Source: Eledone cirrhosa
Lineage: Eukaryota
Direction: 5' to 3'
Assembly: GCA_964016885.1 (NCBI GenBank)
Contig: OZ024740.1
Location: forward strand, 210,614,001-210,678,000
Length of the DNA stretch: 64,000 nt
Made by a program: the position numbers and the translations under genes. The notes under the pieces were generated by a model, which worked only from the letters and a program-made list of their open reading frames with translations, searched no databases and was not told where the DNA came from. Shown here piece after piece: positions 23,976 to 60,532 of this stretch (positions are counted from its first letter, which is position 1; each line of letters starts with the position of its first letter).

Positions 23976-24099
23976 CCCTCTCTCTCTCAGTGATGTTCTT
24001 TTACCTCCTCTCTCATACTCACACACTGATCCACCACCCCACCAACATCATTTACAACATCATAATACGTTTCCCTCTATCTATCTATCTATCTATCTA

Positions 24100-27000
24100 C
24101 ACACCGATGCCCCTTCACTTCCACAAACCACAACCCCACCCAACAACCCATCCCCAACCAGCATGGAAATTGAGCGGCCCGTTTCCCGGGACGCAGAGAG
24201 GTAAGTGCCTTTTCTCTTTACCACCAACATGGCTGTGCTAAGAGTAGGGTGTCTAAATGCGCGTGGCCTGGGCTCGTCTTGGAAGCAAGCAATGCTTCTA
24301 AATGACCTCAGGTCACAATCTATAAATGTGATGGTTATCTGCGAGGCCCGGATCAGCAGCATGCGACAGCTGGCCCCCACCTTTGACGACTTTGAGATGC
24401 ACGCATCTCTCTGTCAGCCCGGAGGTGGGGGTGGGGTTGTCGTTCTGCTGCAAAAACATATGGGCCTTGCAACACAGATAGTTCACTTGGACCCAGGGGG
24501 TCGACTGGTGGTGCTGGACCTTGGCAGTGGTGAAGGTAGAGCCCTTAGGCTGATAGCCGCATATGCCCCTTTTGGGACAGAGCGGCCCGACTTTTTCCAG
24601 CGTCTGGAGTCTTTTCTAGGGACGTCCCGTTCCCTGCTTTTAGTGGGGGATTGGAATGGTATCCTGGATGCACGTTGGGACTATGCAGGGGCATGTCCCG
24701 ATAGAGAGGGGTGCAACAGCCTCAAGGGGTTACTCGGCCGATTTGACCTGGCCGATAGATTTCGACTAGATTTTCCGACGGTGCCAACCTGGTCTTGGTC
24801 AAATCGCAGCGGATCATCTAGATCGTACCTAGACAGATTTTTAGTTAGAAATAAGGACAGGGACTTTTTAAGTTGTCCAGAAATGCTCATGGTTGGCTAT
24901 TCAGACCACAAGTTGGTGACCTGCATGGTCAACCTTGATAGAACGCATAGACAGGGCCCCGGTTACTGGAAGCTCAACTTGTCCTTGCCGGCAAGTAGAG
25001 CCTACAGGAATCGGATTAGTACGTTAGTTAAGGAACGGTTGACTGGAGCGATCGTCAACAGCAGGTGGTGGGTATCTCTAAAGAGAGAGATTAGAGTAGT
25101 CTCGATTGAATTTAGTAAGGTTCTAGCTGCGGATAGGAATAGGAAGGAAAGGGAGCTAATAGATAGAGTAGAAGAGGCAATTAGAAGCGGCGACGTGGCC
25201 AGAGTGCTAGCGTCGAGAACGGCTTTGAGCCAGTTTTTCGACGCGAAGCACGAAGGCTGCGTTGTCCGAAGTAAAATACGTGCTCTAGGGAACGAGGGGG
25301 CCAAAGCTGTTAGCTGGGCCCGCGTGACAGAGGCCAACAGTGGAACTAAATCCACCATCCGGTCTTTGCGAGACCTGGATGGACGGGCGATTCTTGAGCC
25401 TAAGCAGATGTGTGAGGCCTTTCAAAGGCACTTTGCCCGACTGTTCGGGAGGGGCGGGGAGCCGGTTGGAAACGTGGACTTCGGTCCATACCTCGACGGC
25501 CTGCCGCGCCTCTCGGACAGGGAGGCGAAGTCTTGCGAGGAGCCGATTTCGGCCGCTGAGATAGAGGACGTGCTGGGCCAATGCGGCAAACGCAAATCCC
25601 CGGGTCTCGATGGTCTTCCTTACGAATTATATCTAGCTATGCCGGACTTGTTCCCCGATCTCCTCGAGGCGGTCTACTGCAACTGGCAACAGAACGGGAG
25701 AATTCCCTGTACTGTGACCAAGGGCGTAGTCACGCTAGTGAGGAAGGACGAGAACAAGGGGGACGAAATAAGTAACTTCAGGCCCATAACTCTGCTAAAT
25801 ACAGAGTTACAGATTTTGGCCAAGGTGCTAGCAAAGAGGTTGGCGCTTGTCGTGGGCAACCTGGTGGGAGATGCGCAGACATGCGCTATCCCGTCCAGGT
25901 CCATCCATGACAACCTCCACCTCATGCGATACATCATAGAGAGGGTTGGGAACGAACCCGGCTTTGGTGGGGCTCTGATCAACTTGGATCAATCTAAGGC
26001 GTTCGATAGGGTCGACCATGGTTACCTGGATGCGGTGCTAGCGGCGGCAGGCTTCGGACCCGTTTTCAGGGGCTGGATCACTGCTATGCACAGCAGCCGC
26101 ATCTGCTCTAGGGTCAAGGTGAACGGCTACCTCTCGGAGCCGTTCAAAATCGCGCGGTCCATCCGACAAGGGTGCCCTCTCTCCTCCCTTCTGTATGTGT
26201 TGACTCTCGAGCCACTACTGCGGAAGTTGGAGTTGTTGCAGGGCATCCCTTTGGAACCGGGATTGCGGAAAGCGGTGTCAGCCTACGCCGATGACGTGAC
26301 AGTAATGGTGTCGACGGCCTCCGAAATCGAGGCGGTCGGCACCTTACTGGAGGAGTACGAAAAGTTCACAGGGGCTAAGCTGAACCGGGACAAGTCGATC
26401 GGTTTGCAACTCGGCACGTGGAGGGGCAGACCGATGCCCTCCGATGGCGTCGTCGGACGCTGGACGGAGGGCCCGGTGAAGTTGCTCGGGGTCTGGTTCG
26501 GACCGGACCTCCAGGTGGAGAAAAACTGGGCGGAGGTTACGAACAGGGTGTTTGCACTGACCCAGAAGTGGGCCAGTTGCAAACTATCCCTGAAAGGTCG
26601 GGCGGAGGTGGCGAACACTTATATAGCGTCCGTCATCTACTACCGCCTGACCGTAGTGCCCTGCCCAAGGGAAACCCTCACCAAGATGGAGCGCGCGCTC
26701 TTCCAATTCCTTTGGAAGGGGCGGGCTCCTATGGTGAGGAGATCCATCTGCTGTCAACACCCTTCGAAAGGAGGGCTGGGGATGCCGTGGCTAATGATGC
26801 GTAAACACGCATTAAGGCTACGGCACCTCTACGTATTCCTCACCGGACAACCGGTGTGGGCCTCGTTTGTGAGACGAACCTTTCCCAGACTCGTCTCACT
26901 CACCGAGCTGCAATCCTGGGTCAAGCAAAGACCGAGAAAACTGGGCGCCTGGCACACCGAGTGTGCCCAGGCGCTCACCGCCCTCTGGCAGGCGGATCCG

Positions 27001-27930
27001 GTTATCAGTGGAGACTCCACCGCAACATTCTATAGAGGGCTGGTACGCAGCAGGTGCGACGACGCCCTTGGAGAAGCCCTAGACATGGAGGAGGACGAAC
27101 TGGCCAGCCTGTTCGGTAGGACATTCAGCCCGGGACCTATGGACAACTTCCAGAAGTCCCTGGCCTGGCAGTGCTACCGAGGGGCTTTACCCGTTCGAGA
27201 AAGGCTCTACAGACACGGGCGCCCGGGTAGGGACCCCGCCAAAAAGATCTGTCCCAGATGCGTGTGCGACGAGGAAACCGTTGCACACGCATTGGTACAC
27301 TGCTCGGGCGTAGCCGATCTGTGGGGCTATGTCGAACAACTGCTGTCAAGGGTGGGACCGATCCGGTTGACCACCGAGTCTATTGTAATGATCAAGCCGC
27401 CTCCCCCCTTCAAAGATGAAGCAGAGGCGGTGTTTCTGTGCGTAATAGCCATGGCGAAAGAGGTTGTATGGTGGACGCGTCTGAAAGGACTGAGGTCAGG
27501 CACCTTTCTCTCTGGCCAACAACTGGTCCGTTTCTTCCGATATCATTTCGGAAGAAGGATCAGGATGGAGAGAGAGGTGCTGCACCCCAGTCGTTTTTAT
27601 GAAAGGTGGGTGAAAGTGGCGAGAATGGCCCGTGTGAATGGGCCTTCTCTTTACATAAGCCTGTAGGTGGAAAAGAGGAAGGAACGAGGGAGCACCCCCT
27701 CTCTGTGCTCCTGGGGAAAAGGGTTGCACACTTTTTTCGGGGGTGTGTGCGACTCCCCAAGGCGCCTCCTCTCTATTGAGGATTTTGTTAAAAATTTTAT
27801 TTTTTGTTATATCTTATTTTATTTTTATATTTTGTTATTGCCTCCTCCTTATTGAGGACGCCTTTTTGTGTAAACTCCCCCCTTTGTACTTGTCCCACTT
27901 TTGATGCCCTAGTGGCAAATAAAAGAAACT
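24100..27930 (+). mobile_element. Tx1/L1-clade LINE copy 1 (5'-truncated within the end of ORF1; intact ORF2)
   Basis: Preceded by (CTAT)n at 24077-24099. Contains the ORF1 tail MEIERPVSRDAER*, ORF2, and a 3'UTR ending GCCCTAGTGGCAAATAAAAGAAA, followed by (TCCA/TCTA)n to ~28110. Confidence 0.95.
24229..27666 (+). CDS. LINE ORF2 protein: APE endonuclease, reverse transcriptase and C-terminal CCHC zinc finger (1145 aa from ATG)
   Basis: Uninterrupted ORF. APE motifs LNARG, ICE, GDWN, SYLDRF, SDHK; RT motifs FRPITLLN, DQSKAFDRV, QGCPLS, AYADD; C-terminal CPRC...HALVHC. ATG context is CCACCAACATGG. Confidence 0.95.
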   Translation: MAVLRVGCLNARGLGSSWKQAMLLNDLRSQSINVMVICEARISSMRQLAPTFDDFEMHASLCQPGGGGGVVVLLQKHMGLATQIVHLDPGGRLVVLDLGSGEGRALRLIAAYAPFGTERPDFFQRLESFLGTSRSLLLVGDWNGILDARWDYAGACPDREGCNSLKGLLGRFDLADRFRLDFPTVPTWSWSNRSGSSRSYLDRFLVRNKDRDFLSCPEMLMVGYSDHKLVTCMVNLDRTHRQGPGYWKLNLSLPASRAYRNRISTLVKERLTGAIVNSRWWVSLKREIRVVSIEFSKVLAADRNRKERELIDRVEEAIRSGDVARVLASRTALSQFFDAKHEGCVVRSKIRALGNEGAKAVSWARVTEANSGTKSTIRSLRDLDGRAILEPKQMCEAFQRHFARLFGRGGEPVGNVDFGPYLDGLPRLSDREAKSCEEPISAAEIEDVLGQCGKRKSPGLDGLPYELYLAMPDLFPDLLEAVYCNWQQNGRIPCTVTKGVVTLVRKDENKGDEISNFRPITLLNTELQILAKVLAKRLALVVGNLVGDAQTCAIPSRSIHDNLHLMRYIIERVGNEPGFGGALINLDQSKAFDRVDHGYLDAVLAAAGFGPVFRGWITAMHSSRICSRVKVNGYLSEPFKIARSIRQGCPLSSLLYVLTLEPLLRKLELLQGIPLEPGLRKAVSAYADDVTVMVSTASEIEAVGTLLEEYEKFTGAKLNRDKSIGLQLGTWRGRPMPSDGVVGRWTEGPVKLLGVWFGPDLQVEKNWAEVTNRVFALTQKWASCKLSLKGRAEVANTYIASVIYYRLTVVPCPRETLTKMERALFQFLWKGRAPMVRRSICCQHPSKGGLGMPWLMMRKHALRLRHLYVFLTGQPVWASFVRRTFPRLVSLTELQSWVKQRPRKLGAWHTECAQALTALWQADPVISGDSTATFYRGLVRSRCDDALGEALDMEEDELASLFGRTFSPGPMDNFQKSLAWQCYRGALPVRERLYRHGRPGRDPAKKICPRCVCDEETVAHALVHCSGVADLWGYVEQLLSRVGPIRLTTESIVMIKPPPPFKDEAEAVFLCVIAMAKEVVWWTRLKGLRSGTFLSGQQLVRFFRYHFGRRIRMEREVLHPSRFYERWVKVARMARVNGPSLYISL

Positions 27931-28394
27931 CATCTATCTATCATCAATCCATCCATCCATCCATCCATCCATCCATCTATCCATCCATCCATCCATCCAT
28001 CCATCTATCCATCTATCCATCCATCCATCCATCTATCCATCCATCCATCCATCTATCCATCCATCCATCCATCTATCCATCCATCCATCCATCTATCCAT
28101 CTATTTATCTTCTGTTCTACCACCTCCAGTGCCACCACCCTTTCACGTTCATTACTGTTGCTCCACCATTACCATTGCTTTCCTTCCTTATTCTCCACCT
28201 TCAAAACCATCTCTATTTCCATTTCCTCATCCTCATTCATGGACTCTCCTAGTACTTTCCTCTCTACCTTTCCCACTATCTTTTCATTAACTGTTGCTTC
28301 CCTCATCATTCACAACTATATCACATCCAATATTCACTCACACTCACATAGCAGTTCTATCTCTCTCTCTCCATCCATCTCTCTACCCCCCCCC

Positions 28395-28451
<57 letters not shown>

Positions 28452-29532
28452 GAGAGGTTATATTTAATTTGTTGGGATACAACAATCAAAATATTTTTAT
28501 AACTGATATAAAGCACTCAACAAATTAATTGGAATAAATATATATATCGTGTTTAATATAGGACTAAAACTGTTTCATTCAAAAGAAATCATCAGGGCTT
28601 TCTAGGAAAGCCCTGATTTATTTTGAATGAAGCAGTTTTAGTCCTGAAACATGATGTGTACACTCTACTAATGTATTGAGTACTTTACTAACTGTGGTTA
28701 ACCCTGATTGAACCCGGGACTATTCCTCTATCCATATCTCTTTTTCTCTCTCCCTTATCAAAACTGTTGCTTTACCATCGTTACACTGAACTCATCCTCA
28801 ATTATTCCGTTTTTTTTTTTGTCGTACAACGTCCTTCTCTATTCTCTCTACTACTATCTTCTCTTCTCTCCTCTCCCCCCCCTCTCTCGCTCCCTGCATT
28901 ATCTTGTTCCTTTCTCTAGCAACACTCAGACACCATCTTCTCCTCCCCCTGTCTCTCTCTCTCTCTCTGTCTTATCTAGATCCCTCATCTCATAGTGATT
29001 TCTCTCACCCAATCGTTCTCTTATAATCCCTTTCATTCACCTTTTTTTAATATTTTTCATTCACATCTAAAGTAGTCGTATCTAGCTCTCTCTTCCTTCG
29101 TCCATCTATTTCCTTTCACTCCACATAAAACCTCTCTTGCTACCCTTATCCCCTCTATCGTACACATTCACAATAGTTCTTTTTCTCTTTCTCTCTAACC
29201 CCCTCTCTTACTCACTTTCTCTCTAACTCACTCTCTCTTTCTTTTTCATTTTCTCTAACCACCCCTCTCTTTGTTTTATTCTCTCTAACCCCCCCCCCCC
29301 CCTCTAACTCTCTCTCTCTGTTTCATTCTCTCTAACTCCCTCTTTCTCTCTTTCTCTCTAACTCTCTCTCTGTTTCATTCTCTTTAACTCCCCCTCTCTC
29401 TCTCTTTCATTCTTTCTAACCCCTTCTCTCTCTTTCTCTCACACAAGTTCACGTCACCTCTTGTTCCCACTTAGATAATTTATTTTGCTTCACACATTAA
29501 TACACCGTGGATCTCTGTCTGTCTATATATCT

Positions 29533-32468
29533 GTGTCCCAGTAGAGGGGGATACAACAGCCTCAAAAATTTAATCGGCCAATTCCAACTGGCCGATCGGT
29601 ATCGACTAGATTTCCTGACTGCACCACAGTGGACGTGGACAAATATTAGCGGGACATCTAGATCGTATTTAGATAGGTTCTTTATTAGAGAGAGAGGGAG
29701 AGGAAAATGTTAAGCTGTCCACAAATGTACATGGTTGCCTATTCAGACCACAAACTAGTCACCTGCATAGTCAACCACGATAGAACAGATGGACAAGGAC
29801 CTAGATACTGGAAACTGAACGTGTCGTTACCGACGCGTAAAGCCTACAGTAGACGGATAAGTAGATTAGTTAACGGCACTGGACCAGTTCTTCGATGCGA
29901 AACACGAAGGCTGCGTAGTCAGGAGTAGATCACGTGCTCTAGAAAATGAGGGAGCAAAAGCTATTAGCTGGGCCCGAGTGGCAGAGGCAAAAAGTGGCAA
30001 CAAGTCCACGCTTCGGTCTTTGAAAGACCAAAACGGACGCGTGCTACTTGACTCCAGGCGGATGTGCACGGCCTTTCAGGGGCACTTTGCGCAACTGTTC
30101 GAGCAGAACAGTGCGCCGAACGATGTAATGGACTTCGGTTCATACCTCGACGGCCTGTCGCGTCTCTCGAGCATGGACGCCGAGTTCTGCGAAAGACCGA
30201 TCACAGCCACTGAGATACGGGACGCTCTGAGCCGCTGCGGGAAACAGAAATCACCCGGTCTAGATGGTCTACCCTATGAGTTTCACATAGGCATGCCGGA
30301 CTTGTTCTCTGGCGTCCTCGAAGCCGTCTACTGCAACTGGCAGCAGAACGGTAGAATTCCCAGTTCTGCAGGCAGGGACGTAGTAACGCTGATCGGGAAA
30401 GACGAGAACAAGGGAGACAAACTAAGCAACTTTAGGCACATAACTCTCCTAAACGCAGAGTTAAAGATTTTGGCCAAGGTGTTAGCAGCGAGGCTGGCGC
30501 TTATCGTCGAGAACCTGGTGGGAATCAAACGTGTCCAATTCCAACCAGGTCCATACACGACAACCTCCACCTCATGCGATACATCATAGAGAGGGTGGTG
30601 TGAAACCAGGCTTCGGTGGGGCTCTGATCAATTTAGATCAGTCTAAGGCGTTCGATAGAGTCGACCATCGATACTTGGAAGCGGTTCTCAAGGCGGCCGG
30701 TTTCGGACCCGTCTTCAGAGGCTGGATCAAAGCAATGCACACCAACATCTGCTCGAAGGTCAAGGTGAATGGCTACCTATCAGAGCCGTTCGCAATCACG
30801 CATTCCATCCGACAGGGATGCCTTCTCTCCTCTATTCTGTACGTATTGACTCTTGAGCCACTACTGCGGTAGTTGGAGCGGCTACAGGAAAGTGGCGTCG
30901 GCTTATGCCGATGACGTGACAGTAATGGTGGCGAAAACCTTGGAAATCGGGGCGATCGCCAACTTACTGCAGGAATACGAAAGGCTCACAGGAACAAAAC
31001 TAAACCCGGACAAGTCTGTCGCTTTGCAACTCGGAACGTGGAGAGGCAAACCGATGCCGTCCGACAGTGTCGTCGGACGCTGGACGGACGGACCGGTGAA
31101 ATTGCTCGGGGTCTGGTTCGGTCCGGACCTCCAGGTGGAGAGAAACTGGAACGAGGTCACGGCCAAGATATTTGTGGCCCACCCAGAAGTGGGCAGAGTG
31201 CAAACTATCCTTGAAAGGTCGAGCGAAGGTGGCGAACACTTTCATGGCGTCCGTCATCTACTATCGCTTGACTGTCGTGCCTTGTCCCCGTGAATACCTC
31301 GCCAAGATGAAACGCATGCTCTTCCAGTTCCTTTGGAAGAAGCAGGCTCCACTGGTGAGGAGATCCGTCTGCTGTCAGCACCCTTCCAACGGAGGGCTGG
31401 GAATGCCGTAGCTGATGATGAGCAAACATGCGCTGAGGATACGGCATCTACAGGTATTTCTCACCGACCCCCAACCGGTGTGGGCACCGTTTGTGAGACA
31501 GGCCTTCCCGCAACTTGTCTCGCTGAAGGAGCTGCAGTCTTGGGTCAAGCGGAGACCGAAGATGGGCGCCTGGAACATTGAATTCTCTCAGGCGCTCACA
31601 GTTCTCTGTTAAGCGAACACGGAAATCAGTGGAAACTCCACTTCGACATTCTATAGAGGGTTAGTACGTCACAAGTGCGACCACGTGCTCGGAGAGACTC
31701 TGGACGTCGAAGACGACGAGCTCACCCGTCTGTTCGGTAGAACTTTCCGCCTGATACCTATGGACAACTTCCAAAGGTCCCTGGCCTGGCAGTGCTACCG
31801 AGGAGCTCTACCTGTTCGAGACAAGATCTACAGGCACGGACGTCCCGGCAGGGATCCTTCCAAGAGGACGTGTCGAAGATGCGAGCAGGACATTGAAACC
31901 GTCCTGCACGCAATTGTACATTGCCCGGGCGTAACCGACATGTGGAACTATGCAGAAGAACTGCTGTCGCGTATGGGACAAATTCAGTTGACTGCCGAGT
32001 CCATAGTAAGGATCAAACCGCCAACTTCTTTCAAAAACGAAAGAGAGGCAGTTTTCCTCTGTATAGTGGCTATGGTAAAAGAGGTTATATGGTGGATTAG
32101 ATTGAGAGGACTGAGGACAGATGCCTTTCTCTCCGGACAACAACTCATTCCACTCTTTAGGTACCACTTTAGAAGGAGAATCAGAGTGGAGAGAGAGGCA
32201 CTGCACCCCAGTAAATTTACTGAAAGGTGGGTGAATGTAGCAAAAATGGCACGAGTAATTGGGCTTTCTCTGTATATAAACCTGTAGCTTGAAGAAGAGA
32301 GCAAAGGGAAGAAAGGAGCACTTGCGCAACACGCACTTGAAGTTGAGGGTTGTTCTATTTACGGGGTATTAAACAACCCATTTGTAACGCCTTCCCCCTA
32401 TTGAGGATTTCGATTGTTAAATTTGTTTGTTTGTTTCATTTTTTTACACGATTGTATGTAAAATCCCC
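29533..32468 (+). mobile_element. Tx1-clade LINE copy 2 (second subfamily, 5'-truncated, with deletions and stops)
   Basis: Fragmented ORF2 pieces (SYLDRF, SDHK, DQSKAFDRV, AYADD, C..C...H....C). Starts after TCTG/TCTA repeats. Confidence 0.93.
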
Positions 32469-32935
32469 TGTTTGGTGACTATGACAAAAGAAGTCATATA
32501 GTGAACAAGATTGAAAGGGCTGAGGGCAAACACCTTCCTCTCCGGACAACACCTAATCACCTTCTTCAAATGCCATTTCAGAAGAAGGGTGAGAGTGGAG
32601 AGAGAGGCGTTGCATTCCAGTAAATTTTCTGAAAGATGGGTGAATGTTGCGAAAATGGCCCGAATGAATGGCCCTTCTCTGTTTAAAGAGGACAAGACAG
32701 AGAAGACATGAGCTCTTGCAAAACATTCTCTTGGTGTTGAGGGCTGTTCTATCTACGGGGTGTAAAACAACACAGTTGTAAGGTCCACCCTCCCACCCCT
32801 ATTAGGAATTGCGATTGTTTATTATTTATTTTATAACTGTTAAAATTTTCTTTTTTACACGTATGAATGTAAAACCCCCGCCGTAAGTCCTGTAATGTCC
32901 CATTTCTTGTGCGCCCTCGTGGCAAATAAAGAAAT
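32469..32935 (+). mobile_element. Tx1-clade 3' fragment (third variant) fused directly to copy 2
   Basis: GLRANTFLSGQHL...ERWVNVAKMARMNG followed by a 3'UTR ending GCCCTCGTGGCAAATAAAGAAA and (TCTA/TCTG)n. Confidence 0.88.
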
Positions 32936-33051
32936 CTATCTGTATATCTATGTCTGTCTGCCTGTCATCTATTTGTCTATCTGTCTATCTGTCTGTCTGT
33001 TTGACTATCTGTCTGTCTGTCTGTCTGTCTATCTGTCTGTCTGACTACCTG

Positions 33052-33123
<72 letters not shown>

Positions 33124-33322
33124 GCACAACACGCTCCTTGAGTTGAGGGTTGTTCTATCGACGGGGTATTAAACGACCCATTTGTGGCGCCTCCCCTCTA
33201 TTGGGGATTTCGATTGTTGAAATTGTTTGTTTTTATATTTTTTACACGACTGTATGTAAAATCCCCGGCATGTCTTTGTATTGTCCCCTTTCTTGTTGCG
33301 CCCTTGTGGCTAATAAAGAAAT
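33124..33322 (+). mobile_element. Tx1-clade 3'UTR-only insertion (~200 bp)
   Basis: Near-identical to the 3'UTR at 48225-48420; flanked on both sides by (CTAT)n. Confidence 0.9.
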
Positions 33323-33354
33323 CTATCTATCTATCTATCTAGCTAGCTAGCTAG

Positions 33355-33392
<38 letters not shown>

Positions 33393-33469
33393 GACTATGT
33401 CTGTCATCTATCTGTCTGACTATGTCTGTCATCTATCTGTCTGACTACCTGTCTATCTGTCTATCTGTT

Positions 33470-35197
33470 CCATATCACGCGATCCATTCGACAGGGATGC
33501 CCTCTCTCCTCCCTTCTGTACGTACTGACTCTTGGGCCACTACTTCGGAAGTTGGAGCTATTGCAGGGCATCCCTCTGGAACCGGGACTGCGGAAAGCGG
33601 CGTCGGCCTACGCCGACGACGTGACAGTAATGGTGTCGAGCGCCTCGCAAATCGAGGAAAGGTTCACAGGAGCGAAGCTGAACCGGGAAAAATACATCGG
33701 TTTGCAACTCGGATCGTGGAGAGGCAAACCGATGCCTTCCGATGGCGTCGTCGGACGCTGGACGGAAGGACCGATAAAGCTGCTCGGGGTCTGGTTTGGT
33801 CTGGACCTCCAGGTGGAGAAGAACTGGAACGAGGTGACGGCCAAGGTGTTTGCACTCACCCAGAAGTGGGCCGAGTGCAAACTATCCTTGAAAGGTCGAG
33901 CGGAGGTGGCGAACACTTTTATAGCGTCCGCCATCTACTACCGCTTGACCGTCGCGCCTTTTCCAGCCAAAACGCTCACTAAAATGGAGCGCGCGCTCTT
34001 CCAATTCCTTTGGAAGAGGCGGGCTCCTTTGGTGAGAAGATCCATCTGTTGCCAACACCCGGAGGGCTGGGGATGCCGTGGCTGACGATGCGCAAACACG
34101 CACTCAAGCTGCGGCATCTCTACGTATTCCCCACCGGACAACCGGTGTGGGCCCCGTTCGTGAGGCGAGCCTTCCCACGACTCGTCTCGCTGACCGAGCT
34201 GCAGTCCTGGGTCAAGCAAAGACCGAGGAAAATGGGCGACTGGCACATCGAATGTGCTCAGGCACTCACAGCCCTCTGGCAGGCGGACCCGGCGATCAGT
34301 GGAGACTCCACTTCGTCATTCTATAGAGGGTTGATCCGCAGCAAGTGCGACGAAGTGCTCGGTGAAACTCTAGGCGTAGAGGAAGACGAACTGGCCAGTC
34401 TATTCGGTAGGACCTTCCTCCCGGGACCGATAGACAACTTCCAAAAGTCCCTGGCCTGGCAGTGCTACCGAGGAGCTCTACCAGTTCGTGACAAGCTCTA
34501 CAGACATGGGCGCCCGGGCAGGGACCCTGCAAAAAAGATCTGTCCGAGGTGTGTGCGAGACGAAGAAACCATCGCGCACACATTCATACACTGCCCGGGC
34601 GTCACCGACCTGTGGGGCTATGTAGAACGACTATTGTCGCGGGTGGGACCAATCCGGTTGACCACCGAGTCCATTGTCATGATCAAACCGCCACCCTCCT
34701 TCAAAAACGAAGGAGAGGCGGTTTTCCTTTGTGTGATAGCTATGGCGAAAGAGGTTGTATGGTGGACAAGGTTGAAAGGGCTGAGGTCAGACACCTTTCT
34801 CTCCCGCCAACAACTGATCCTTTTTTTTCAAATACCACTTTGGAAGAAGAATCAGGATGGAGAGAGAGGTGCTGTACCCCAGCAAGTTTTATGAAAGGTG
34901 GGTGAAAGTGGCGAGAATGGCCCGAGAGAATGGGCCTTCTCTCTATATCAGCCTGTAGGTTGAGGAAAAGGAGGAGGAGAGGAAAGGAGTACAAACTCTT
35001 CGTACTCCTAGAGATGAGGGTTGCACATTTTTTTTCGGGGGTATGTGTTACCCATATGAACTGTCTCCCCATATTGGGGAAAATCGACTAATTTTTAAAT
35101 TGCATTTGTGATAATATTTTACACGTTTTTATTGTATGTAAACTTCCCGCTTTGTATTTGTCCCCTTCTTTTCTGCCTCTGTGGCTAATAAAGAAAC
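33470..35197 (+). mobile_element. Tx1-clade LINE copy, 5'-truncated in RT, frameshifted
   Basis: QGCPLS-region, AYADD and CPRC..H..C pieces; 3' end GCCTCTGTGGCTAATAAAGAAA. Confidence 0.93.
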
Positions 35198-35392
35198 ATA
35201 TCTACCTGTCTCTGTCTTTGATAGTAGACGTCTTTCATATCGGCTCTTCGATTTGGAATTTTTACTTGGAATATTTGAGAGTGCATTATTTAAATTGTTT
35301 TTTATTATTGACTCTAACCCCTAGTCTGGGACTGTAGACGTAGGGTAAATATATTTTCACCTCTTTTGGGGTGAAAAATATTTAATTCAAAA

Positions 35393-37149: not shown

Positions 37150-37172
37150 GTGCCTCTTTCTTTGCCACCAAC

Positions 37173-40100
37173 ATGGCTGTGTTAAGAGTGGGTTGTCTAA
37201 ATGCGCGTGGCCTGGGCTCACCTTGGAAGCAAGCTAAACTTCTAAATGACCTCAGGTCACAATGTATAAATGTGATGGTTATTTGCGAGGCCCGGATCAG
37301 CAGCGTGCGACAGCTAGCCCCCACCTTTGATGACTTTGAGATGCACGCATCTCTCTGTCAGCCCGGAGGTGGGGGTGGGGTTGTCGTTCTGCTGCAAAAA
37401 CATCTGGGTCTCGCTACACAGACGGTACACTTGGACCCGGAGGGTCGACTCGTGGTTCTGGACCTTGACAATGGTGAAGGCGAAGCTTTTAGGCTTGTCG
37501 CCGTATACGCCCCTTTTGGGGCAATGCGGTCGGACTTCTTCCATCGTCTGGAGACTTTTCTAGGGACGTCCCGCTCCTTGCTTTTAGTGGGGGACTGGAA
37601 TGGTATCCTAGATGCACGTTTGGACTATGTAGGGGCATGTCCCGATAGAGGGGTGTGTAACAGCCTTAAGGGGTTAATCGGCCGATTTGACCTGGCCGAT
37701 AGATACCGACTAGATTTTCCGACTGTGCCAACCTGGACTTGGTCAAATAACAGTGGTCAATCTAGATCGTACCTAGATAGGTTCTTAGTTAGAATTAAGG
37801 ATAGGGACATTTTAAGTTGTCCAGAAATGCTCATGGTGGGCTATTTAGACCACAAGTTAGTGACCTGCGTAGTCCACCTTGATAGAACGCATAGGCAGGG
37901 ACCCGGTTACTGGAAGCTCAACTTGTCCTTACCGGCAAGTAGAGCTTACAGGGACCGGATTAGAACCTTAGTTAAGGAGCGGTTGACTGGCACCATCGTC
38001 AACAGCAGGTGGTGGGGCTCTCTAAAAAGAGAGATTAGAGTAGTTTCAATAGGAGTTAGTAAGGAGTTAGCCTCAGATAGAAATAGGAAGGAAAGGGAGT
38101 TGGTAGTTAATGTTGAAGAGGCAATGAGAAGCGGCAACGTGGCCAGAGTGCAAGCGTCGAGAATGGTCTTTAACCAGTTCTTCGACGCGAAACACGAAGG
38201 CTGCGTTGTCCGAAGAAAAATACGTGCTCTGGGAAACGAGAGGACCAAAGCTGTTAGCTGGGCCCGCGTGACAAAAGCGAAAAGTGGGATTAAATCCACT
38301 ATCCGGTCTTTGCGAGACCAGGATGGACGGTTGATCCTTGAACCTAAGCAAATGTGCGAGGCCTTTCAAAGGCACTTTGCCCGATTGTTCGGGAGGGGCG
38401 GGGAGCCGGTTGGGGATGTGGAATTCGGTCCATACCTCGACGGCCTGGCGCGTCTTTCGGACAAGGAGGCGAGGTCCTGCGACGGGCCGATCTCAGCTGC
38501 TGAAATAGGGGACGTGCTGAGCCTATGCGGCAAACGCAAATCTCCAGGGTTCGATGGTCTGCCCTACGAACTATATATTAATATGCCGGACTTGTTCCCC
38601 GATCTCCTCGAGGCGGTCTACTGCAACTGGCAACAGAACGGGAGAATTCCCTGTTCTGTGACCAAGGGCGTAGTCTCGCTAGTGAGGAAGGACGAGAACA
38701 AGGGGGATGGCATTAGTAATTTTAGGCCCATAACTCTGCTAAATGCAGAGTTAAAAATTTTGGCCAAGGTGTTAGCGAAGAGGTTGGCGCTTGTCGTGGG
38801 GGCCCTGGTGGGAGATGCGCAGACATGCGCTATCCCGTCCAGGTCCATCCACGACAACCTCCACCTCATGCGATACATCATAGAGAGGGTTGGGAACGAA
38901 CCCGGCTTTGGTGGGGCCCTGATAAATTTAGATCAGTCTAAAGCGTTCGATAGGGTGGACCATGGTTACCTGGATGCGGTGCTAGCGGCGGCTGGGTTCG
39001 GACCCGTTTTCAGGGGCTGGATCACTGCCATGCACAGCAGCCGCATCTGCTCTAGAGTCAAGGTGAACGGCTACCTTTCGGAGCCGTTCGAAATCACCCG
39101 CTCCATCCGACAGGGGTGCCCTCTCTCCTCCCTTCTGTATGTATTGGCCCTCGAGCCACTACTGCGGAAATTAGAGTTGTTGCAGGGCATCCCTTTGGAA
39201 CCGGGATTGCGCAAAGCGGTGTCGGCCTATGCCGATGACGTAACAGTAATGGCGTCGACCACCTCGGAAATTGAGGCAAACGGCACCTTACTGGAGGAGT
39301 ACGAAAGGTTGACAGGGGCTAAGTTGAACCGGGACAAGTCAGTCGCTTTGCAACTCGGTGAGTGGAGGGGAAAAGCGATGTCGTGCGACGGTATCGTCGG
39401 ACGGAGGGCCCGGTGAAGTTGCTTGGGGTCTGGTTCGGACCGGACCTCCAGGTGGAGAAAAACTGGGGTGAGGTGACGAATAGGGTGTTTGCACTGATTC
39501 AGAAGTGGGCCGAGTGCAAACTATCCCTGAAAGGTCGGGCGGAGGTGGCGAACGCTTACATAGCGTCCGTCATCTATTACCGCTTGACTGTCGTGCCTTG
39601 CCCGGGTGAGATCCTCGCCAAAATGGAGCGCGCCCTCTTTTATTTCCTTTGGAAGAAGAGGTCTCCTCTGGTGAGGAGATCCATCTGCTGTCAACACCCT
39701 TTGAAAGGAGGGCTGGGGATGCCGTGGCTAAAAATGCGTAAACACGCATTGAGGCTAAGGCACCTCCAGGTATTCCTCACCGGTCAACCGGTGTGGGCCC
39801 CGTTTGTGAGGCGAGCCTTCCCGAGGCTCGTCTCGCTCACCGAGCTGCAGTCCTGGGTGAAGCCAAGACCGAGAAAACTGGGCGACTGGCACACCGAGTG
39901 TGCCCAGGCGCTCACGGCTCTCTGGCAGGCGCACCCGGCTATCGACGGAGACTCCACCTCGTCATTCTATAGAGGGCTGGTGGTTAGCAGGTGCGACGAC
40001 GCCCTAGGAGAAACCCTAGGCATGGAGGAGGACGAACTGGCCAGTCTATTCGGTAGGACTTTCGGCCCGGGACCTATGGACAACTTCCAGAAGTCCTTGG

Positions 40101-40608
40101 CCTGGCAGTGCTACTGAGGGGCTCTGCCCGTTCGGGATAAACTCTACAGACACGGGCGCCCGGGTAGGGACCCCTTGAAAAAGATCTGTCCCAGATGCGT
40201 GCGCGACGAGGAAACCATCGCGCACGCATTGGTGCACTGCCCGGGCGTTGCCGATCTGTGGGGCTATGTCGAACAACTGCTGTCACGGGTGGGACCAATT
40301 AGGTTGACCACCGAGTCCATTGTAACGATCAAGCCGCCCCCCCCCCCCCCTTCAAAAATGAAGGAGAGGCGATGTTTCTGTGTGTAATAGCCATGGTAAA
40401 AGAGGTTATATGGTAGACGCGTCTGAAAGGGCTGAGGTCGGACACCTTTCTTTCCGGCCAACAACTGGTCCTTTTCTTCCGATACCATTTCGGAAGAAGG
40501 ATCAGGATGGAGAGAGAGGTGCTGCACCCCAGCCAGTTTTATGAAAGGTGGGTGAAAGTGGCGAGAATGGCCCGTGTGAATGGGTCTTCTCTCTACCTCA
40601 GCCTGTAG
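37173..40608 (+). pseudogene. LINE ORF2 (APE-RT-ZnF), open for ~740 aa and then frameshifted/stopped
   Basis: 747-aa ORF plus 251-aa and shorter continuation ORFs, highly similar to ORF2 of copy 1. Confidence 0.93.
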
Positions 40609-40822
40609 GTGGAAAATGAAGAAGGGAGCACCCTCTCTTTGTGCTCCCGTGGAGAAGGGTCGCACATTTTTTCGGGGGTGTGTGTGACCCCAAAACGATC
40701 CCTCCCTATTGAGGACCTTCTTGTTACTATTTTGTTTCTTATATTTTTCTTACTCGATTTTTATGTAAACTCCCCCCACCCATGTCCCTTTCTTTTGTGC
40801 CCTAGTGGCAAATAAACAGAAA

Positions 40823-41596
40823 TGTGTCTGTCTGACTACGTCTGTCATCTATCTGTCTGTCTGTCTGACTATGTCTGTCATCTATCTGTCTGTCTGTCTA
40901 TCTGTCTGTCTATCTGTCTGTCTGTCTGACTACCTGTCTATCTGTCTATCTGTCTATCTATCTATCTATCTATCTGTCTGTCTGTCTGACTATGTCTGTC
41001 ATCTATCTGTCTGTCTGTCTATCTGTCTGTCTGTCTGACTACCTGTCTATCTGTCTATCTGTCTATCTATCTATCTGTCTGTCTGTCTGACTATGTCTGT
41101 CATCTATCTGTCTGTCTTTCTATCTGTCTGTCTGTCTATCTGTCTGTCTGTCTGACTACCTGTCTATCTGTCTATCTGTCTGTCTGTCTGACTGACTAAG
41201 TCTGTCATCTATCTGTCTGTCTGTCTATCTGTCTGTCTGTCTATCTGTCTGTCTGACTATGTCTGTCATCTATCCGTCTGTCTGTCTATCTGTCTGTTTA
41301 TCTGTCTGTCTGTCTGACTACCTGTCTATCTGTCTATCTATCTGTCTGTCTATCTGTCTGTTTATCTGTCTGTCTGTCTGACTACCTGTCTATCTGTCTA
41401 TCTGTCTATCTATCTGTCTGTCTATCTGTCTGTTTGTCTATCTGTCTGTCTGTCTGACTACCTGTCTATCTGTCTATCTGTCTGTCTGTCTATCTGTCTG
41501 TCTGTCTGACTACCTGCCTATCTGTCTATCTATCTATCTGTCTGTCTGTCTATCTGTCTGACTATGTCTGTCAATCTGTCTGTATATCTGTCTGTC
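40823..41596. repeat. Complex (TCTG/TCTA)n, i.e. GACA/GATA-type, satellite with recurring CTGACTATGTCTGTCATCTAT and CTGACTACCTGTCTAT motifs
   Basis: Directly visible. The same motifs occur in the spacers at ~32940-33120, 33325-33468 and 48423-48475. Confidence 0.97.
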
Positions 41597-44296
41597 GTGC
41601 CAGTAGACAATACAAGCTATATACACATTTCGGCAGAAGGGGGCAAGTCACATCGTTTTAAATGCGCAAGCACATCGCATTTAAAGGCCTCCTGTCCCCT
41701 CTTTCGACCCCCCCCCCAAAAAAAGTACTTTTACCAACACCAACTCCAAAACCACAACAACAACAACAACACAAAACAAGCAAGCACACAAAAACAAACA
41801 ACTGCTCAACCACAAACAACAGAAAAAAACACAAACAATTCCCTTGAAAAACACAGTACCACCCCATCCCACTCCATCCAACACTACCACAATCACACAC
41901 ACAAACACACCATCACCACACAACATACCCATCCCACACGCCCCTGATGACGATTCATCGCCAGATGAGGCTACTTCTCCATCCCCAAATGAAGATGAAG
42001 GAGAGCCTCGGAAATAAAAACAAAACAAAAAAAGAGACACCGCAAAGCCACAAAAACACCAATCACTAACATGAACACACAACCACCAACACAAACAACA
42101 ACACAAACACCACCCCAAACACAAATGTCCACCATAAAAAGAAAACTACAAAATGAACAACAAACCAAAACAACACAACAACAAAAGTACACATACATTA
42201 ACACAAACAACAAAAACCTAATGGAGGTCATCTCCCAAGACCCCAAAGTAGAAATTGAGGGGAAAACTTTTATCAAGGCAGACTCTCAACCACACCTAAA
42301 ACTGATAAGGGTTTCGATAGAAACCTATCAGAAATTAAAAGAACAATTTTCGCAGGACGTTGGCAACCCTTGTCAAAAGCCCATTAACCGCGTCCTATTA
42401 AAATGTTTCCCCACCCCACTCAACACCCGCACCAGCACCCAAATGGATATTGAACAACCCGATCTCCAGGAAACGAAAAGGTAAATGCATCTTTTCGTCC
42501 TTTTTCGCCAACTCTTCTCCACCAACATGGCTGATTTACAAGTTGGAAGTGTGAATGTGCGTGGCCTAGGGATGCCCAGGAAACAGGGCCAACTTTTAAA
42601 CGACCTTAGGTCACACGGTATGGATGTGATAGCCATCACCGAGTCCAGGATCCACAACAGGCAGCAACTAACCCCCACCTTCAATGACTTTGAGATCATG
42701 CTGTCAGCCAGGAGGCGGAGGGGGAGTGACTGTCATGTTTCGGAAAAACCTGGACGTTGAAGTACAGCAAGTACACTTGGACCCGGAGGGTAGACTGGTA
42801 GTCCTAGACGTGAACAGTGTTGGAGGTGGAGCCTTCAGACTGGTGGCCGTTTATACCCCAACTGGGCAATCGCGGTCAGACTTCTTTAAGCGTCTAGAGT
42901 CTTTTCTGGGAACGTCTAGCTCCTTGCTTTTAGTGGGGGACTGGAATGGTATCCTAGACGTACGATGGGACTATGTAGGATCATGTCCCAGTAGAGGGGG
43001 GTGCAACAGACTCAAAAATTTAATCGGCCAGTTCCAACTGGCTGATAGGTATCGACTAAATTTCCCGACTGCACCAGAGTGGACGTGGACAAATCTCAGC
43101 GAGACATCTAGATCATATTTAGACAGGTTATTTATTAGAGAGAGAGAGAGAGAAGAAGATGTTAAGCTGTCCACAAATGCACATGGTTGCCTATTCAGAC
43201 CACAAACTAGTCATCTGCATAGTCAACCGTGATAGAATACATAGACAAGGACCCGGATACTGGAAGCTGAACGTTTTCGCTACCGACACGTAAAGCCTAC
43301 AGTGAACGGATAAGTAGATTAGTTAAGCAACAATTGACGGGAGCCATCGTCAACAATAGATGGTGGTATTCCCTCAGGAAAGCAATTAGAATAGAGTCGA
43401 TAGACTTTAGCAGAGAGTTAGCCTTACAGAGAAACAAAACAGAAACGGAACTAGTAGCCAAGGTAGAGGAGGCGCTTAGGAGCGGCAACGTAGCTAGAGT
43501 GCTAGCAACGAGAACGGCACTGGACCAGTTCTTCGACGCGAAATACGAAGGCTGCGTGGTCAGAAGTAAATCACGTGCTCTAGTAAACGAGGGAGCGAAA
43601 GCTGTTAGCTGGGCCCGAGTGGTAGAGGAAAAATGTAGCAACAAGTCCACGCTTCGGTCTTTGAAATACTAAAACGGACGCGTGCTACTTGACCCCAAGC
43701 GGATATGCGCGGCCTTTCAGCGGAATTTTGCGCAACTGTTCGAGCAGAGTGGCGGTGCGTCGAACGGGGCAATGGACTTCGGTTCATACCTCGACGGCCT
43801 GTCGCGTCTCTCGAGCATGGACGCCGAGTTCTGCGAAAGACCGATCACAGCCACTGAGGTACGGGACGCTCTGGGCCGCTGCGGGAAACGCAAATCACCC
43901 GGTCTATATGGTCTACCCTATGAGTTTTACATAGGCATGCTGGACTTGTTCTCTGGCGTCCTCGAAGCCGTCTACTGCAACTGGCAGCAGAACGGGAGAA
44001 TTCACAGTTCTGCAGGCTGGGGCGTAGTAACGCTGATCAGGAAAGACGAAACAAGGGGGATGAACTAAGCAACTTTAGGCTCATAAGTCTGCTCAACACA
44101 GAGTTAAAGATTTTGGCCAAGGTGTTGGCAACAAGGTTGGCGCCTGTCGTTGAGAAACTGGTAGGGAATGCGCAAACGTGTGCAATCCCGACCAGGTCCA
44201 TACACGACAACCTCCACTTCATGCGATACATAATAGAGAGGGTGGGGTGTAAACCTGGCTTCGGTGGGGCTCTGATCAATTTAGATCAGTCTAAGG

Positions 44297-46724
44297 CAGC
44301 AGTTCCCAAACTTTTATAATAAATTCCACCTTAATGATATAGCAAGCAAAACAGTATGACCCCCCCCCCCCCCCTAAAAAAATTAAAATTTTTGATATAA
44401 TTTTTTTATGTAGAAATAATTTCGGCATCTCTTTTTATTTCAATGAAATCATTTTAAATTTATTATAAACCCTTTTTCAACAAAAAAACATTAAAACAAG
44501 AACATATTATTTAATTTCAAAGAACAAATTAATGTATTTCTGTAATTGTTTGTTTTCAACTAGTTTCTGGAATCTTGGAAGAATAGAGGTAAGAGCACAC
44601 ATCAAGTCATCTTCAACTGCCAATTTGTTTCTTGCCTTTGATTTGATTGCTAACATAGCAGAGAACCCGCTCTCACAAAGATAAGTAGATGAAAATGGCA
44701 GCAACACATGGATCGCCATGTCAGTTATTCTTGGGTTGGACACTTTCATAGAACACCAGAATTCATTCAATTCTTCTGTCTTAAACAAATTATTTGCTGT
44801 TGAGTCATTAATTAGTTCAAGGAATTCTTCTTGAGCGGCTTCTGGTACAACTTCCACATCACAAAGAAAGGAATTTCTTGTCAACTCAAGATTTTGTTGA
44901 CTTAGAACTGGGAAGTCCTCTGAAACTCATTCTCAAGTTGTGACAGATCGTCAGTTATTTCAAGTTCTGTGGTCATTGGGAGTTGCTCTGCATTTAGAAT
45001 AGATGTCATTTTTGGAAACATTATAACATTATCTGGGTGAACTCTTTGCTTGTATAATACTAATTTTCCTAGAAAAGCCCGGATATCATCTGTATGTGAC
45101 AGAATATTGCAATTTTTCCCTTGCAATTTTAAATTCAAACTATTGAGTATGTCGAAAATGTCAACAAGATAAGCAAGAAGAAGATCAAATTGATCATGTT
45201 GAAATTTTTCCAGAATATCTTGCTTCTTTTGCTCTTCAACAGACTTTTTCACCACATTGCTAAGCGAGAAAAACCTTTCCAAAAATTGACCAGCTGACAA
45301 CCAACGGACAGCTGTGTAGTAAAGATGAGTATGCTTTGTTCCCAGGTCATCACAAAGTTGTTTGAACAAACGAGTATTCAGAGCTGATGATTTGATAAAA
45401 TTTACAATTTTGACAATGTCTTTGAAGAAATTATTTAATTTTTGAGGCAATGATTTTGATGCAAGGGCTTCTTTGTGTATGAAGCAATGTACTTGTACTT
45501 GTGGTGCTTTAGCTTTTACCAGTGTTTGTAAACCAGACCTTGATCCAAGCATTGCTGGTGCTCCATCTGTTGTTATGCCTATGGGATGTTGCCAAAGAAT
45601 TCCATGCTTGTCAATAAATGTAGAAATTGATTCCATGACATCAACTGCTTTCGTTGTGCCCTCCAGCGAATGACAGTAAAGAAACTCTTCTTTCATATGA
45701 CCATTAAACAAATAGCGACAGAAGACTAGGAGTTGAGAACATGGAAACATCAGTTGATTCATCAAGCTGCAATGCAAACCATGGTGAATCCTTAATTTGC
45801 TCAACGATTTGTTCCTTCAAATCTTCCGATATATCATTTATCCTTCGTTTTATCGTGTTATTTGACAAGGATATATCATTTAACTTCTTTGAAGCACTTT
45901 CTCCAACAACAAGTTTAACCTTCTCTTTGGCACAAGGCAAAATCAGTTCCTCAGCAATCGTATGTGCCTTCTTTTGTTGAGCAATCAGATAAGCAACACG
46001 ATAGAAGCTTCAACAATAGTGGCCTTGGTCTCATGAATAGTACCACTTACATCAAGCTTTTGATTTTTTAAACCATCTGATTTCCTTTTAAAAAAAGATT
46101 CAACTTTTCCAAGTAGTTCAGGATGACATTTTGAAAGATGTAATTTGAGCTTAGAAGGCCTCATAGAGTCATTTCCCAGTACCTTGAAACAAGTTACACA
46201 TTGAGGCAAATCAATATTGTTCTTTTGCATGCAAACAAATCCCATTTGAAGATAGGAATCATCATACTTTCTTTTTTTTCTGTTTTTCTGACATTGAGAA
46301 ATTCACTAAAATAAATAAAAAAAAGTTTCTATATCCAGTTTTAAATGATAAATTTACTAAAATAAATAATGAAAAGTACTTCAAAATAGTCAAAGTAATT
46401 TTGTCAATGAGAAATTTACTAAAATAAATAATATATATCCTGTTATAAAAATAAGTTTCTTTACTAAGTTTACTTACTAAAACATAAATTGTTATATCCA
46501 GATTTAAATAATTATCAAGTGAAGTAAAATCATAATTAGAAAAGGTAGAAAGTTGATAAAAAGTTGAATATAAAAATTTGAAGCAAGAAAAAGAAAAAAT
46601 TGTTAGGAAACTACTCTTCTTTTTTATGTATGAAATTTTGTGATTTTTAGTTAATTCCCGTGGCTCCCCCAATAACTTGCTATGGCCCACTGGTGGGCCA
46701 TGGCCCTCTGGTTGGGAACCAATG
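44297..46724 (-). mobile_element. hAT DNA transposon, Buster/Charlie type (2428 bp)
   Basis: Imperfect TIRs CAGCAGTTCCCAAAC / CATTGGTTCCCAACC. Perfect 8-bp TSD GTCTAAGG (44289-44296 and 46725-46732) with central TA. Confidence 0.95.
44507..46294 (-). pseudogene. Frameshifted hAT transposase (ZBED5/SCAND3/Buster-like)
   Basis: BED finger PQCVTC...HLSKCH, FALQLDESTD, TTDGAPAMLG, HCFIHKEAL, VRWLS, PFSSTYLCESGFS. Confidence 0.92.
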
Positions 46725-48720
46725 GTCTAAGGCGTTCGATGGGGTTGAGCATCGATACTTGGAACCGGTTCTCAAGGTGGCCGGTTTCGGACCCGTCTTC
46801 AGAGGCTGGATCACCGCAATGCACACCAACTTCTGCTCTATGGTCAAGGTGAACGGCTACCTATCGGAGCCGTTCGCAATCACGCGTTCCATCCGACATG
46901 GATGTCCTCTCTCCTCCATTCTGTACGTACTGACTCTAGAGCTACTACTGCGGAAGTTGGAGCTGCTGCAGGGCATCCCGTTGGAACCGGGACTGCGGAA
47001 AGCGGCGTCGGCTTATCCCGACGACGGGACAGTAATGGTGTTGGAAATCGGGGCGATCGGCAACTTACTGCAGGAATACGAAAGGCTCACAGGAACAAAA
47101 CTGAACCCGGACAAGTCTGTCGGTTTGCAACTCGGAACGTGGAGAGGCAAACCGATGCCGTCCGACAGCGTCGTCGGACGCTGGACGGACGGACCGGTGA
47201 AATTGCTCGGGGTCTGGTTCGGTCCGGACCTCCAGGTGGAGAAAAACTGGAACGAGGTCACGGCCAAGGTATTTGCGCTCACCCAGAAGTGGGCAGAGTG
47301 CAAACTATCCTTGAAAGGTCGAGCGGAGGTGGCGAACACTTTTATAGCGTCCGCCATCTACTACCGCTTGACCGTCGCGCCTTGTATCTACAGGTATTTC
47401 TCACCGACCCCCAACCGGTGTGGGCACCGTTTGTGAGACAGGCCTTCCCGTAACTTGTCTTGCTGAAGGAGCTGCAGTCCTGGGTCAAGCGGAGACCGAA
47501 GATGAGCGCCTGGAACATTAAATGGTCTCAGGCGCTCACAGTTCTCTGTCAAACGAGCACGGCAATCAGTGGAAACTCCACTTCGACATTTTATAGAGGG
47601 TTAGTACGTCACAAGGGGGACGACGTGCTCGGAGAGACTCTAGGCATCGAAGACGACGAGTTAACCAGTCTGTTTGGTAGAACTTTCCGCCTGGGACCTA
47701 TGGACAACTTCCAGAGGTCCCTGGCCTGGCAGTGCTACCGCGGAGCTCTACCAGTTCGTGACAAGATCTACAGGCACGGCCGCCCCGACAGGGATCTTTC
47801 CAAGAGGACGTATCCAAAATGCGGTCAGGACAGTGAAACCGTCTTGCCCGCAATTGTACACTGCCGGGGCGTAACCGACCTGTGGAACTACGCAGAACCA
47901 CTGCTGTAGTAAGGATCAAACCGCCAACTTCTTTCAAAAACGAAAGAGAAGCGGTTTTCCTCTGTATAGTGACTATGGTGAAAGAGGTTATATGGTGGAT
48001 GAGATTGAGAGGACTGAGGACAGATGCCTTTCTCTCCGGACAACAACTCATTCCATTCTTTAGGTACCACTTTAGAAGGAGAATCAGAGTGGAGAGAGAG
48101 GCACTGCACCCCAGTAAATTTACTGAAAGGTGGGTGAATGTGGCAAAAATGGCCCGAGTGATTGGCCTTCTCTGTATATAAACCTGTAGCTTGAAGAAGA
48201 GAGCAAAGGGAAGAAAGGAGCACTTGCACAACACGCTCTTGAAGTTGAGGGTTGTTCTATCTACGGGGTATTAAACAACCCATTTGTGGCGCCTCCCCCT
48301 ATTGGGGATTTCGATTGTTATAATTGTTTGTTTCATATTTTTACACGATTGTATGTAAAATCCCCGGCATGTGTCCTTGTTTTGTCCCCTTTTCTTGTGC
48401 GCCCTTGTGGCTAATAAAGAAATATATCTATCTGTCTGTCTATCTATATGTCTGTCATCTATCTGACTAACTATTTATTTGCATATCTGTCTCTCACCTA
48501 TATGGAAAGATTCTCTGGATCCCATTTCTCCGTTTTACATACCATACACCACCCAACGTCTCCACCCATCCATAGTAGTTCAAACTCTTTCTCTTACTCT
48601 CCTCCCTCTTTCTTTATTTACTTCACTCTCTTTCATCTACAACATTCACACTCACCAACTTCGATTACTCTTTTTTTCTGCTCTCCCAACCCTCTCTATT
48701 TTCCCCACTTTACTTATCTT

Positions 48721-48790
<70 letters not shown>

Positions 48791-49231
48791 TCCCCTACAT
48801 TCTCTCTCCTTCATATATTCCATTTCTTTACTCTCTTCCACATTCCCTGTATCCCTTAGTCTATTTATTATTCAGTCTAGCAATCAATTTTATCGTTCGC
48901 CTTTTCTCTGAATTGAGAGATCACAGCTCCGATACTATGGACATGTGGTTAGAATGTCCCAGGAAAGAATCGCTGGACAGATTGTATAGGCAAAACCAAC
49001 CAGCATGAGACCCAGGGGCAGACCCCGAGGAAGATAGTTGGATATTATCCAGGAGCCTTGCTGGTTTCCCTTGCTCGTTTCCTTCAGTTGGAGAAGAAGA
49101 AGTTCACATTAAACTGTCAATAGTCCAGTTCACCTAGCTGTAAGTAGGTACCACATCGTCAACTGTAATGTGTCAATGACCAAGACATTATACTGTCAAC
49201 AGGCCTGTCCACCTAGCGGTACGAAGATACC

Positions 49232-55678: not shown

Positions 55679-55689
55679 TATATATACAT

Positions 55690-57271: not shown

Positions 57272-57334
<63 letters not shown>

Positions 57335-57337
<3 letters not shown>

Positions 57338-60500: not shown

Positions 60501-60532
<32 letters not shown>

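Follow-up and report, generated by a model that had tools for sequence, protein, structure and literature searches.

A one-way cluster of L1-group, likely Tx1-clade, LINEs in the TCTA/TCTG repeats of an Eledone cirrhosa contig

These elements insert by target-primed reverse transcription, and in Tx1 and R1 elements the choice of site is attributed mainly to the endonuclease (PMC4494074, PMC1950540). Among long interspersed nuclear elements (LINEs) with an apurinic/apyrimidinic endonuclease (APE), Kibi and Koshi occupy (TC)n and (TTC)n in teleost fish (PMC4494074), and the crocodilian elements Tx1-1_Crp, Tx1-5_Crp, Tx1-6_Crp, Tx1-1_Gav and Tx1-2/3/5/8_AMi occupy (TTCC)n/(TTTC)n (PMC4494074, PMC3812793). 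Keno, of the Tx1 clade, targets the U2 small nuclear RNA (snRNA) (PMC4494074, PMC4640811), Waldo and Mino target (ACAY)n and (AC)n (PMC3812793) and belong to the R1 clade according to a cited title, and a telomere-specific Tx1 is on record (PMC10088271). Further background on the clade is given in PMC4640811 and PMC3747384, and L1-Tx1 is listed as expanded in coleoids in PMC8967140, the available portion of which names no target. Here we describe a cluster of L1-group, likely Tx1-clade, LINEs in a stretch of 64,000 nucleotides from Eledone cirrhosa (assembly GCA_964016885.1, contig OZ024740.1, positions 210,614,001 to 210,678,000), referred to as the window. The 5′ flanks, locus-specific motifs, candidate target-site duplications (TSDs) and public reads support insertion of these elements, in a fixed orientation, into pre-existing TCTA/TCTG repeats.

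Like Kibi, Koshi and the crocodilian Tx1 elements, the window element belongs to the L1-group APE LINEs and lies in a microsatellite for which the pyrimidine-rich strand is given as the target. It is set apart from them by the target description, as its unit is TCTA/TCTG/TCCA, and none of the 45 dinucleotide arrays of at least 10 units in the window, two of which are pure (TC)n, holds a copy. With Waldo it shares an APE LINE on a degenerate tetranucleotide repeat, but it differs from Waldo and Mino in clade, repeat unit and host, these being insect elements. Keno-like elements were recovered from metagenome contigs in which an A-run is followed by U2 snRNA sequence (L003:4752, L008:5078, L009:5839 and L029:1713, with U2 confirmed by Rfam for L009). 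The elements at L003, L008 and L009 score 368-452 bits against the window open reading frame 2 (ORF2), which scores 169 bits against human L1, and the Keno-like 3′ flank starts with GTATCTGT, resembling the satellite motif TATCTGT, a likeness that may be chance. However, the window element has neither poly(A) nor a U2 flank, its flanks are all microsatellite, and it falls outside the U2-inserted group in our tree. No Tx1 element targeting GATA/TCTA was found in the literature searched, although Repbase, Kojima and Fujiwara 2004, or the supplements and figure labels of PMC4494074 could list one. The window lineage most likely represents a new target unit and a new host group for a known microsatellite-targeting strategy.

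Mapping with ORF2 and the longer copies placed seven LINE copies or fragments (c1 to c7) between 24100 and 48422, all on the + strand, and no further match outside the cluster in the 64 kb, in agreement with the original prediction of at least seven same-strand copies. Pairwise comparison resolved four sequence types rather than the two or three subfamilies first proposed: A (c1 and c6, 88% identical), B (c2, c4 and c7, 86-91%), C (c5) and D (c3), with 72-83% identity between types. The copies, their repeat flanks and the spacers between them (S1 to S4, in several of which two motifs, M1 and M2, recur) are as follows.

24076..24099, + strand: (TCTA)6, the 5′ flank of c1, with non-LINE sequence upstream
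24100..27929, + strand: c1, type A, 5′-truncated in the end of ORF1, with ORF2 intact and the 3′ untranslated region (UTR) ending in AATAAAAGAAAC
27930..28103, + strand: 3′ flank of c1, TCTA and then a TCCA-rich array, without motifs M1 and M2
29512..29533, + strand: 5′ flank of c2, a short, degenerate TCTG/TCTA tract, the left end of the second repeat locus
29534..32468, + strand: c2, type B, 5′-truncated, with an internal deletion, a decayed ORF2 and the last ~45 bp missing
32469..32934, + strand: c3, type D, a 3′ fragment joined directly to c2
32935..33123, + strand: spacer S1, a satellite of TCTA/TCTG units that includes motif M2 and a long run of pure TCTA
33124..33321, + strand: c4, type B, a 198-bp 3′ UTR fragment between candidate TSDs
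33322..33467, + strand: spacer S2, a TCTA run and then motifs M1, M1 and M2
33468..35197, + strand: c5, type C, 5′-truncated in the reverse transcriptase (RT)
35198..35216, + strand: spacer S3, between c5 and c6, 19 bp, degenerate, sharing CTACCTGTCT with the end of S2
~35217..40822, + strand: c6, type A, apparently full length at 5.6 kb
40823..41596, + strand: spacer S4, a 774-bp TCTG/TCTA satellite with 14 motifs of M1/M2 type
41597..48422, + strand: c7, type B, 5′-truncated inside ORF1, decayed, with a DNA transposon inside and a candidate TSD
44297..46724, - strand: hAT-type DNA transposon inside c7, younger than c7, decayed, with the 8-bp TSD GTCTAAGG
48423..48475, + strand: 3′ flank of c7, a TCTA/TCTG tract, the right end of the second repeat locus

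The seven 5′ ends all differ, as the original prediction of separate truncations had it, with c6 apparently full length. The 3′ end is shared, consisting in six copies of GTGGCWAATAAA plus a few bases up to GAAA(C) with the repeat directly after, and it lies 4-6 nt beyond AATAAA; poly(A) is found on none of the seven copies. At 12 of the 14 ends, at least 8 of the 20 flanking bases lie in TCTA, TCTG or TCCA units, a level reached by 1.8% of 80,350 background windows, and 8 of the 14 ends have 12 or more such bases, as do 47 of the 80,350 windows (for scoring, c2 and c6 were taken to start 6 and 1 bases, respectively, to the left of their final starts). The two ends with a score of 0 both belong to the single junction between c2 and c3, which probably lost its repeat through a later deletion; the claim that all junctions but one are repeat instead of poly(A) thus stands. 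As neighbouring copies share spacer flanks, the 12 repeat-flanked ends are not independent. In PMC4494074, a target preference is called when over 20% of the flanks belong to one type, a share exceeded by the 12 of 14 ends here and by the 3′-side reads described below. Against an expectation of 0.13, the sequence TCTRTCTRTCTR matches 155 times, always on the + strand and always inside 24076-48446, and CTGACTATGTCTGTCATCTAT and CTGACTACCTGTCTAT occur 6 and 8 times, respectively, in spacers only.

The repeats form two loci separated by 1.4 kb, one holding c1 alone and the other c2 to c7, and both 5′ flanks that lead an array are repeat: 20 of 20 bases at c1 (0 of the 80,350 background windows) and 12 of 20 at c2 (47 of 80,350). 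As no copy lies upstream, these leading flanks are not the tail of another copy. Copies c1 and c6, both of type A, are followed by TCCA-rich and TCTG-rich arrays, respectively, and motif M2 is common to the spacers after c3, c4 and c6, which are of types D, B and A, with M1 also present after c4 and c6. Flanks that differ between copies of one type and motifs that cross types suggest that the flanks follow the locus and not the element type. At c7, the 12-bp TATCTGTCTGTC ends at the 5′ junction and recurs 6 nt past the 3′ end, and c4 has (TCTA)5 on both sides, a candidate TSD of 20 bp of pure repeat. Taken together, a target preference fits the window better than tails made by the element. The related proposal that one satellite was split repeatedly is plausible in so far as M2 spans S1, S2 and S4, but there are two repeat loci and the array at c1 lacks the shared motifs.

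We therefore consider it reasonably probable that the cluster arose by repeated, separate insertions of a LINE lineage that targets (GATA/GACA)n, led by its endonuclease. The enzyme would nick (AGAT)n, the purine-rich strand, with GAT^AGAT as the probable site, suggested because five of the six intact 3′ ends join ATCT within 0-4 extra bases. Reverse transcription would be primed at the nick on an RNA ending just after AAUAAAGAAA, possibly aided by UCUA repeats that were read through. The single orientation and the clustering would follow from a strand-asymmetric target that persists to either side of every insertion, so that later copies would enter the remaining repeat and point the same way. 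One satellite of ~1.2 kb would have been split over a long time into spacers S0-S5, and c1 would sit in a second, nearby microsatellite. For comparison, L1 cuts a TpA bond (PMC13295347), and the Tx1L target reads AGTT downstream of the nick (PMC1950540).

The ORF2 of c1 (24229..27666, + strand) encodes 1145 aa from its first ATG without stop or frameshift, with Pfam matches to Exo_endo_phos (41-235), RVT_1 (520-763) and zf-RVT (984-1040, below the cut-off), and among PDB entries it matches human L1 ORF2p best (E 1e-48, the 169 bits given above). D145, T192 and H230, named in PMC1950540, align to D, T/S and H. ORF1, with a weak Pfam match to zf-CCHC (E 0.017), starts at 35393 in c6, where it retains the CCHC knuckle and has two internal stops; the ORF2 of c6 has two frameshifts and two stops, and ORF2 decay across the copies ranges from 0 to 9.3 breaks per kb. 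With a predicted endonuclease, an RT, a C-terminal zinc-binding region and a separate ORF1, the element is, judged from its sequence, an L1-group APE-type LINE. Placement in the Tx1 clade is likely. A FastTree phylogeny of 115 of 119 proteins, which included no named Tx1 or L1, puts the window element on a long branch beside a sister lineage with a support of 100, and the window element and the U2-inserted group meet only at an unresolved node. The closest named proteins are from Argonauta hians (58-62% identity), which points to a probable octopod host, a relative with 67% identity lies on a 5.2-kb Joint Genome Institute contig (P0218), and the ESM Atlas returned only generic RT and endonuclease clusters with no taxa attached. 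The four copies that retain the endonuclease hairpin loop carry W[ST]W[ST]NxSxxSRSYLD, and the loop of the sister lineage is longer by two residues; a role of this loop in target specificity is a guess.

The sister lineage, with 41% ORF2 identity to the window element, comes from apparent animal DNA binned into bacterial metagenome-assembled genomes (L056-L098 in G001; L099 and L105 in G002). In G001, 57 near-full-length copies among 84 matches stand head to tail with a period of 6.4-6.9 kb, and adjoining copies are mostly ~99% identical and intact. Sister copies have no poly(A) and stop right after AATAAA, and a comparable CCTTGTG motif stands upstream. Some of their 3′ ends run straight into 5′-truncated copies (L058, L092, L101). 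The lineage could be self-targeting or tandemly amplified. No TCYR array (Y, pyrimidine; R, purine) of four units was found in loci L056-L105, suggesting that tandem stacking may extend across the wider lineage, with the GATA preference confined to a narrower part of it. Five TCTA arrays at four loci in the G001 and G002 contigs have no LINE beside them, but as no other repeat of the window occurs in these contigs, they provide no test of the window family. In other collections, single-protein scans gave 35 pattern matches in metagenome contigs, none of them confirmed, and no relative in viral contigs, in which the 22-nt pattern of the 3′ end was also without a match. Alignment-based scanning of metagenomes recovered 55 loci, none of which matched over the full length at more than ~30% identity or showed a junction of TCTA type.

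Public reads from 4 of 18 runs were compared with positions 33467-36300 of the window. In run X16, position 35205, eight bases beyond the end of c5, is T in all 1977 raw reads (123 starts), in register with TCTAT, and 3911 reads cover 35173, so that TCTAT follows no fewer than half of the 3′ ends. Contigs from runs labelled organisms A, B and C (62, 70 and 4 contigs, respectively) also have T at 35205. A joint with no counterpart in the window (112 reads, one start) connects a 3′ end, by way of TCTA repeats, with a copy whose truncation lies at 33882, and a neighbouring joint has 78 reads with two starts. From the 35205 column and the first of these joints, we infer that TCTA repeat lies beyond 3′ ends elsewhere. 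A repeat junction on the 5′ side was seen outside the window in one joint only, and no loose end at the 5′ end of c6 was present among the 24 listed of 4195 loose ends.

Several observations weigh against a preference for pre-existing repeats. The TSD search found no match touching both junctions at c1, c2+c3, c5 or c6, and TSD evidence inside repeats is weak. The order of M1 and M2 in S4 is irregular and not strictly periodic, which leaves the continuity of one satellite across the insertions plausible and unproved, and the whole loci that could be read amount to two independent ones. No empty TCYR array of at least five units exists in the window, all 22 lying in tracts that adjoin a copy, and element-made tails would predict the same. 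The read evidence is nearly all from the 3′ side and so cannot separate tail from target, and about half of the reads at 35173 stop short of 35205. At the sister junctions, the closest relatives with flanking DNA, there is neither TCTA/TCTG nor a spacer. In run X16, a loose end before 33830 (3311 reads, agreement 0.53) is AT-rich, an abundant junction without TCTA that points away from a strict genome-wide TCTA specificity. This junction could be an amplified composite repeat. Of the original prediction of a repeat-targeting Tx1 LINE, insertion into pre-existing repeats is thus supported, Tx1 membership is likely, and the specificity may lie in the endonuclease or in pairing between a repeat-ended RNA and the target; the AT-rich junction points away from strict specificity across the genome.

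An alternative that we regard as rather unlikely, and yet the strongest of the competing accounts, places the specificity in RNA-DNA pairing, which would still amount to targeting: the element would either carry a (UCUA)n tail or be transcribed into one, its endonuclease would have a loose specificity, and only nicks beside matching repeats would prime well. Since copies lack poly(A) and end 4-6 nt after AATAAA, the transcript probably does run into the repeat, the 3′ flanks elsewhere are TCTAT in register, and pairing between a 3′ repeat and its target is a standing hypothesis (PMC13295347). Yet c1 and c6, of the same type, carry different 3′ repeats, the endonuclease of Tx1L is itself sequence-specific in vitro (PMC1950540), and Bov-B LINEs with repeat tails are rarely flanked by tail-like targets (PMC13295347). 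Less probable still is that the repeats are tails made by the element and later expanded, with copies piling up head to tail by insertion next to one another, as appears to happen in the sister lineage. Such a process would be compatible with the lack of empty arrays, with the spacer-free arrays of that lineage, with the spacer of just 19 bp between c5 and c6 and with the abundance of the AT-rich junction in reads, but it is countered by the repeat 5′ flanks of c1 and c2, by spacer motifs that cross element types and by the TSD candidate at c7.

We consider it very improbable that the cluster owes its origin mainly to a single LINE-plus-repeat unit duplicated segmentally or in tandem. The likeness of the type B copies, the order M1-M1-M2 found in both S2 and S4, and two near-identical truncated copies in tandem in the sister arrays (L101) would suit such an origin, and the differences between c2 and c7, 24/33/42 by codon position, suggest neutral decay after insertion or an old duplication, which is possible among type B copies. 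Four types at 72-91% identity with differing 5′ ends argue against duplication in general, as does inter-copy similarity that stops short of the non-repeat flanks. Between c1 and c6, the differences of 55/45/138 by codon position show a third-position bias that requires selection and descent from separately active masters. Duplication is refuted for c1 and c6, for which the check asked of segmental duplication thus came out in favor of separate insertion, and between types.

Copy c7 was also considered as a full-length copy and rejected, as its start falls inside ORF1 just before the zinc knuckle; the AGTAGAC common to the starts of c6 and c7 is put down to chance because c7 begins within ORF1. 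The DNA transposon inside c7 is absent from the matching position in c2, and its motifs suggest a Buster/Charlie-like family. Around the cluster, non-LINE DNA at 22740-24075, 28110-29510 and 48475-48900 is 76-80% pyrimidine on the + strand, a share that falls to 47-52% at a greater distance; the bias favours the same strand as in the TCTA target, and a 111-bp tandem repeat at 22746-23429 lies within this pyrimidine-rich DNA. Elsewhere in the window, a 47-bp minisatellite of 26 copies (97%) occupies 1168-2413 and a 93-bp tandem repeat of 3.4 copies occupies 49719-50032. A 310-bp unit (99% identity) fills 57273-60532, with ~3 copies one way and then ~7 inverted, in a large palindrome bounded by (TA)n, and a related inverted repeat lies at 61196-62120. 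Degenerate RT-like coding traces were seen by eye on both strands at 55100-56900, which we assume to resemble Penelope-type elements, and the one ORF scanned there (56133-56819) had no Pfam match.

Microsatellite targeting by APE-type LINEs is already known, and the printed units that we found exclude GATA/GACA and the listed hosts of Tx1-type elements are fish and crocodilians. Our findings leave the general understanding of retrotransposition unchanged. How APE endonucleases gain specificity is called not well understood in PMC3812793, and a TCTA-targeting lineage with an intact ORF2 provides a ready enzyme for this question, to be compared naturally with its close sister, whose junctions differ. 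A bolder reading, which is tentative and on balance doubtful, would be that of an abundant octopod lineage distinct from Kibi, Koshi and Keno that independently evolved GATA/GACA specificity without poly(A), and whose sister inserts at its own 5′ end, giving arrays free of spacers. The two lineages would in that case mark a switch of target, between self and tetranucleotide repeat, that maps to the two-residue change in the hairpin loop, and the element would be a main partner of octopod GATA/GACA satellites. If the targeting is true, GATA/GACA microsatellite markers in these animals would often adjoin a high-copy LINE.

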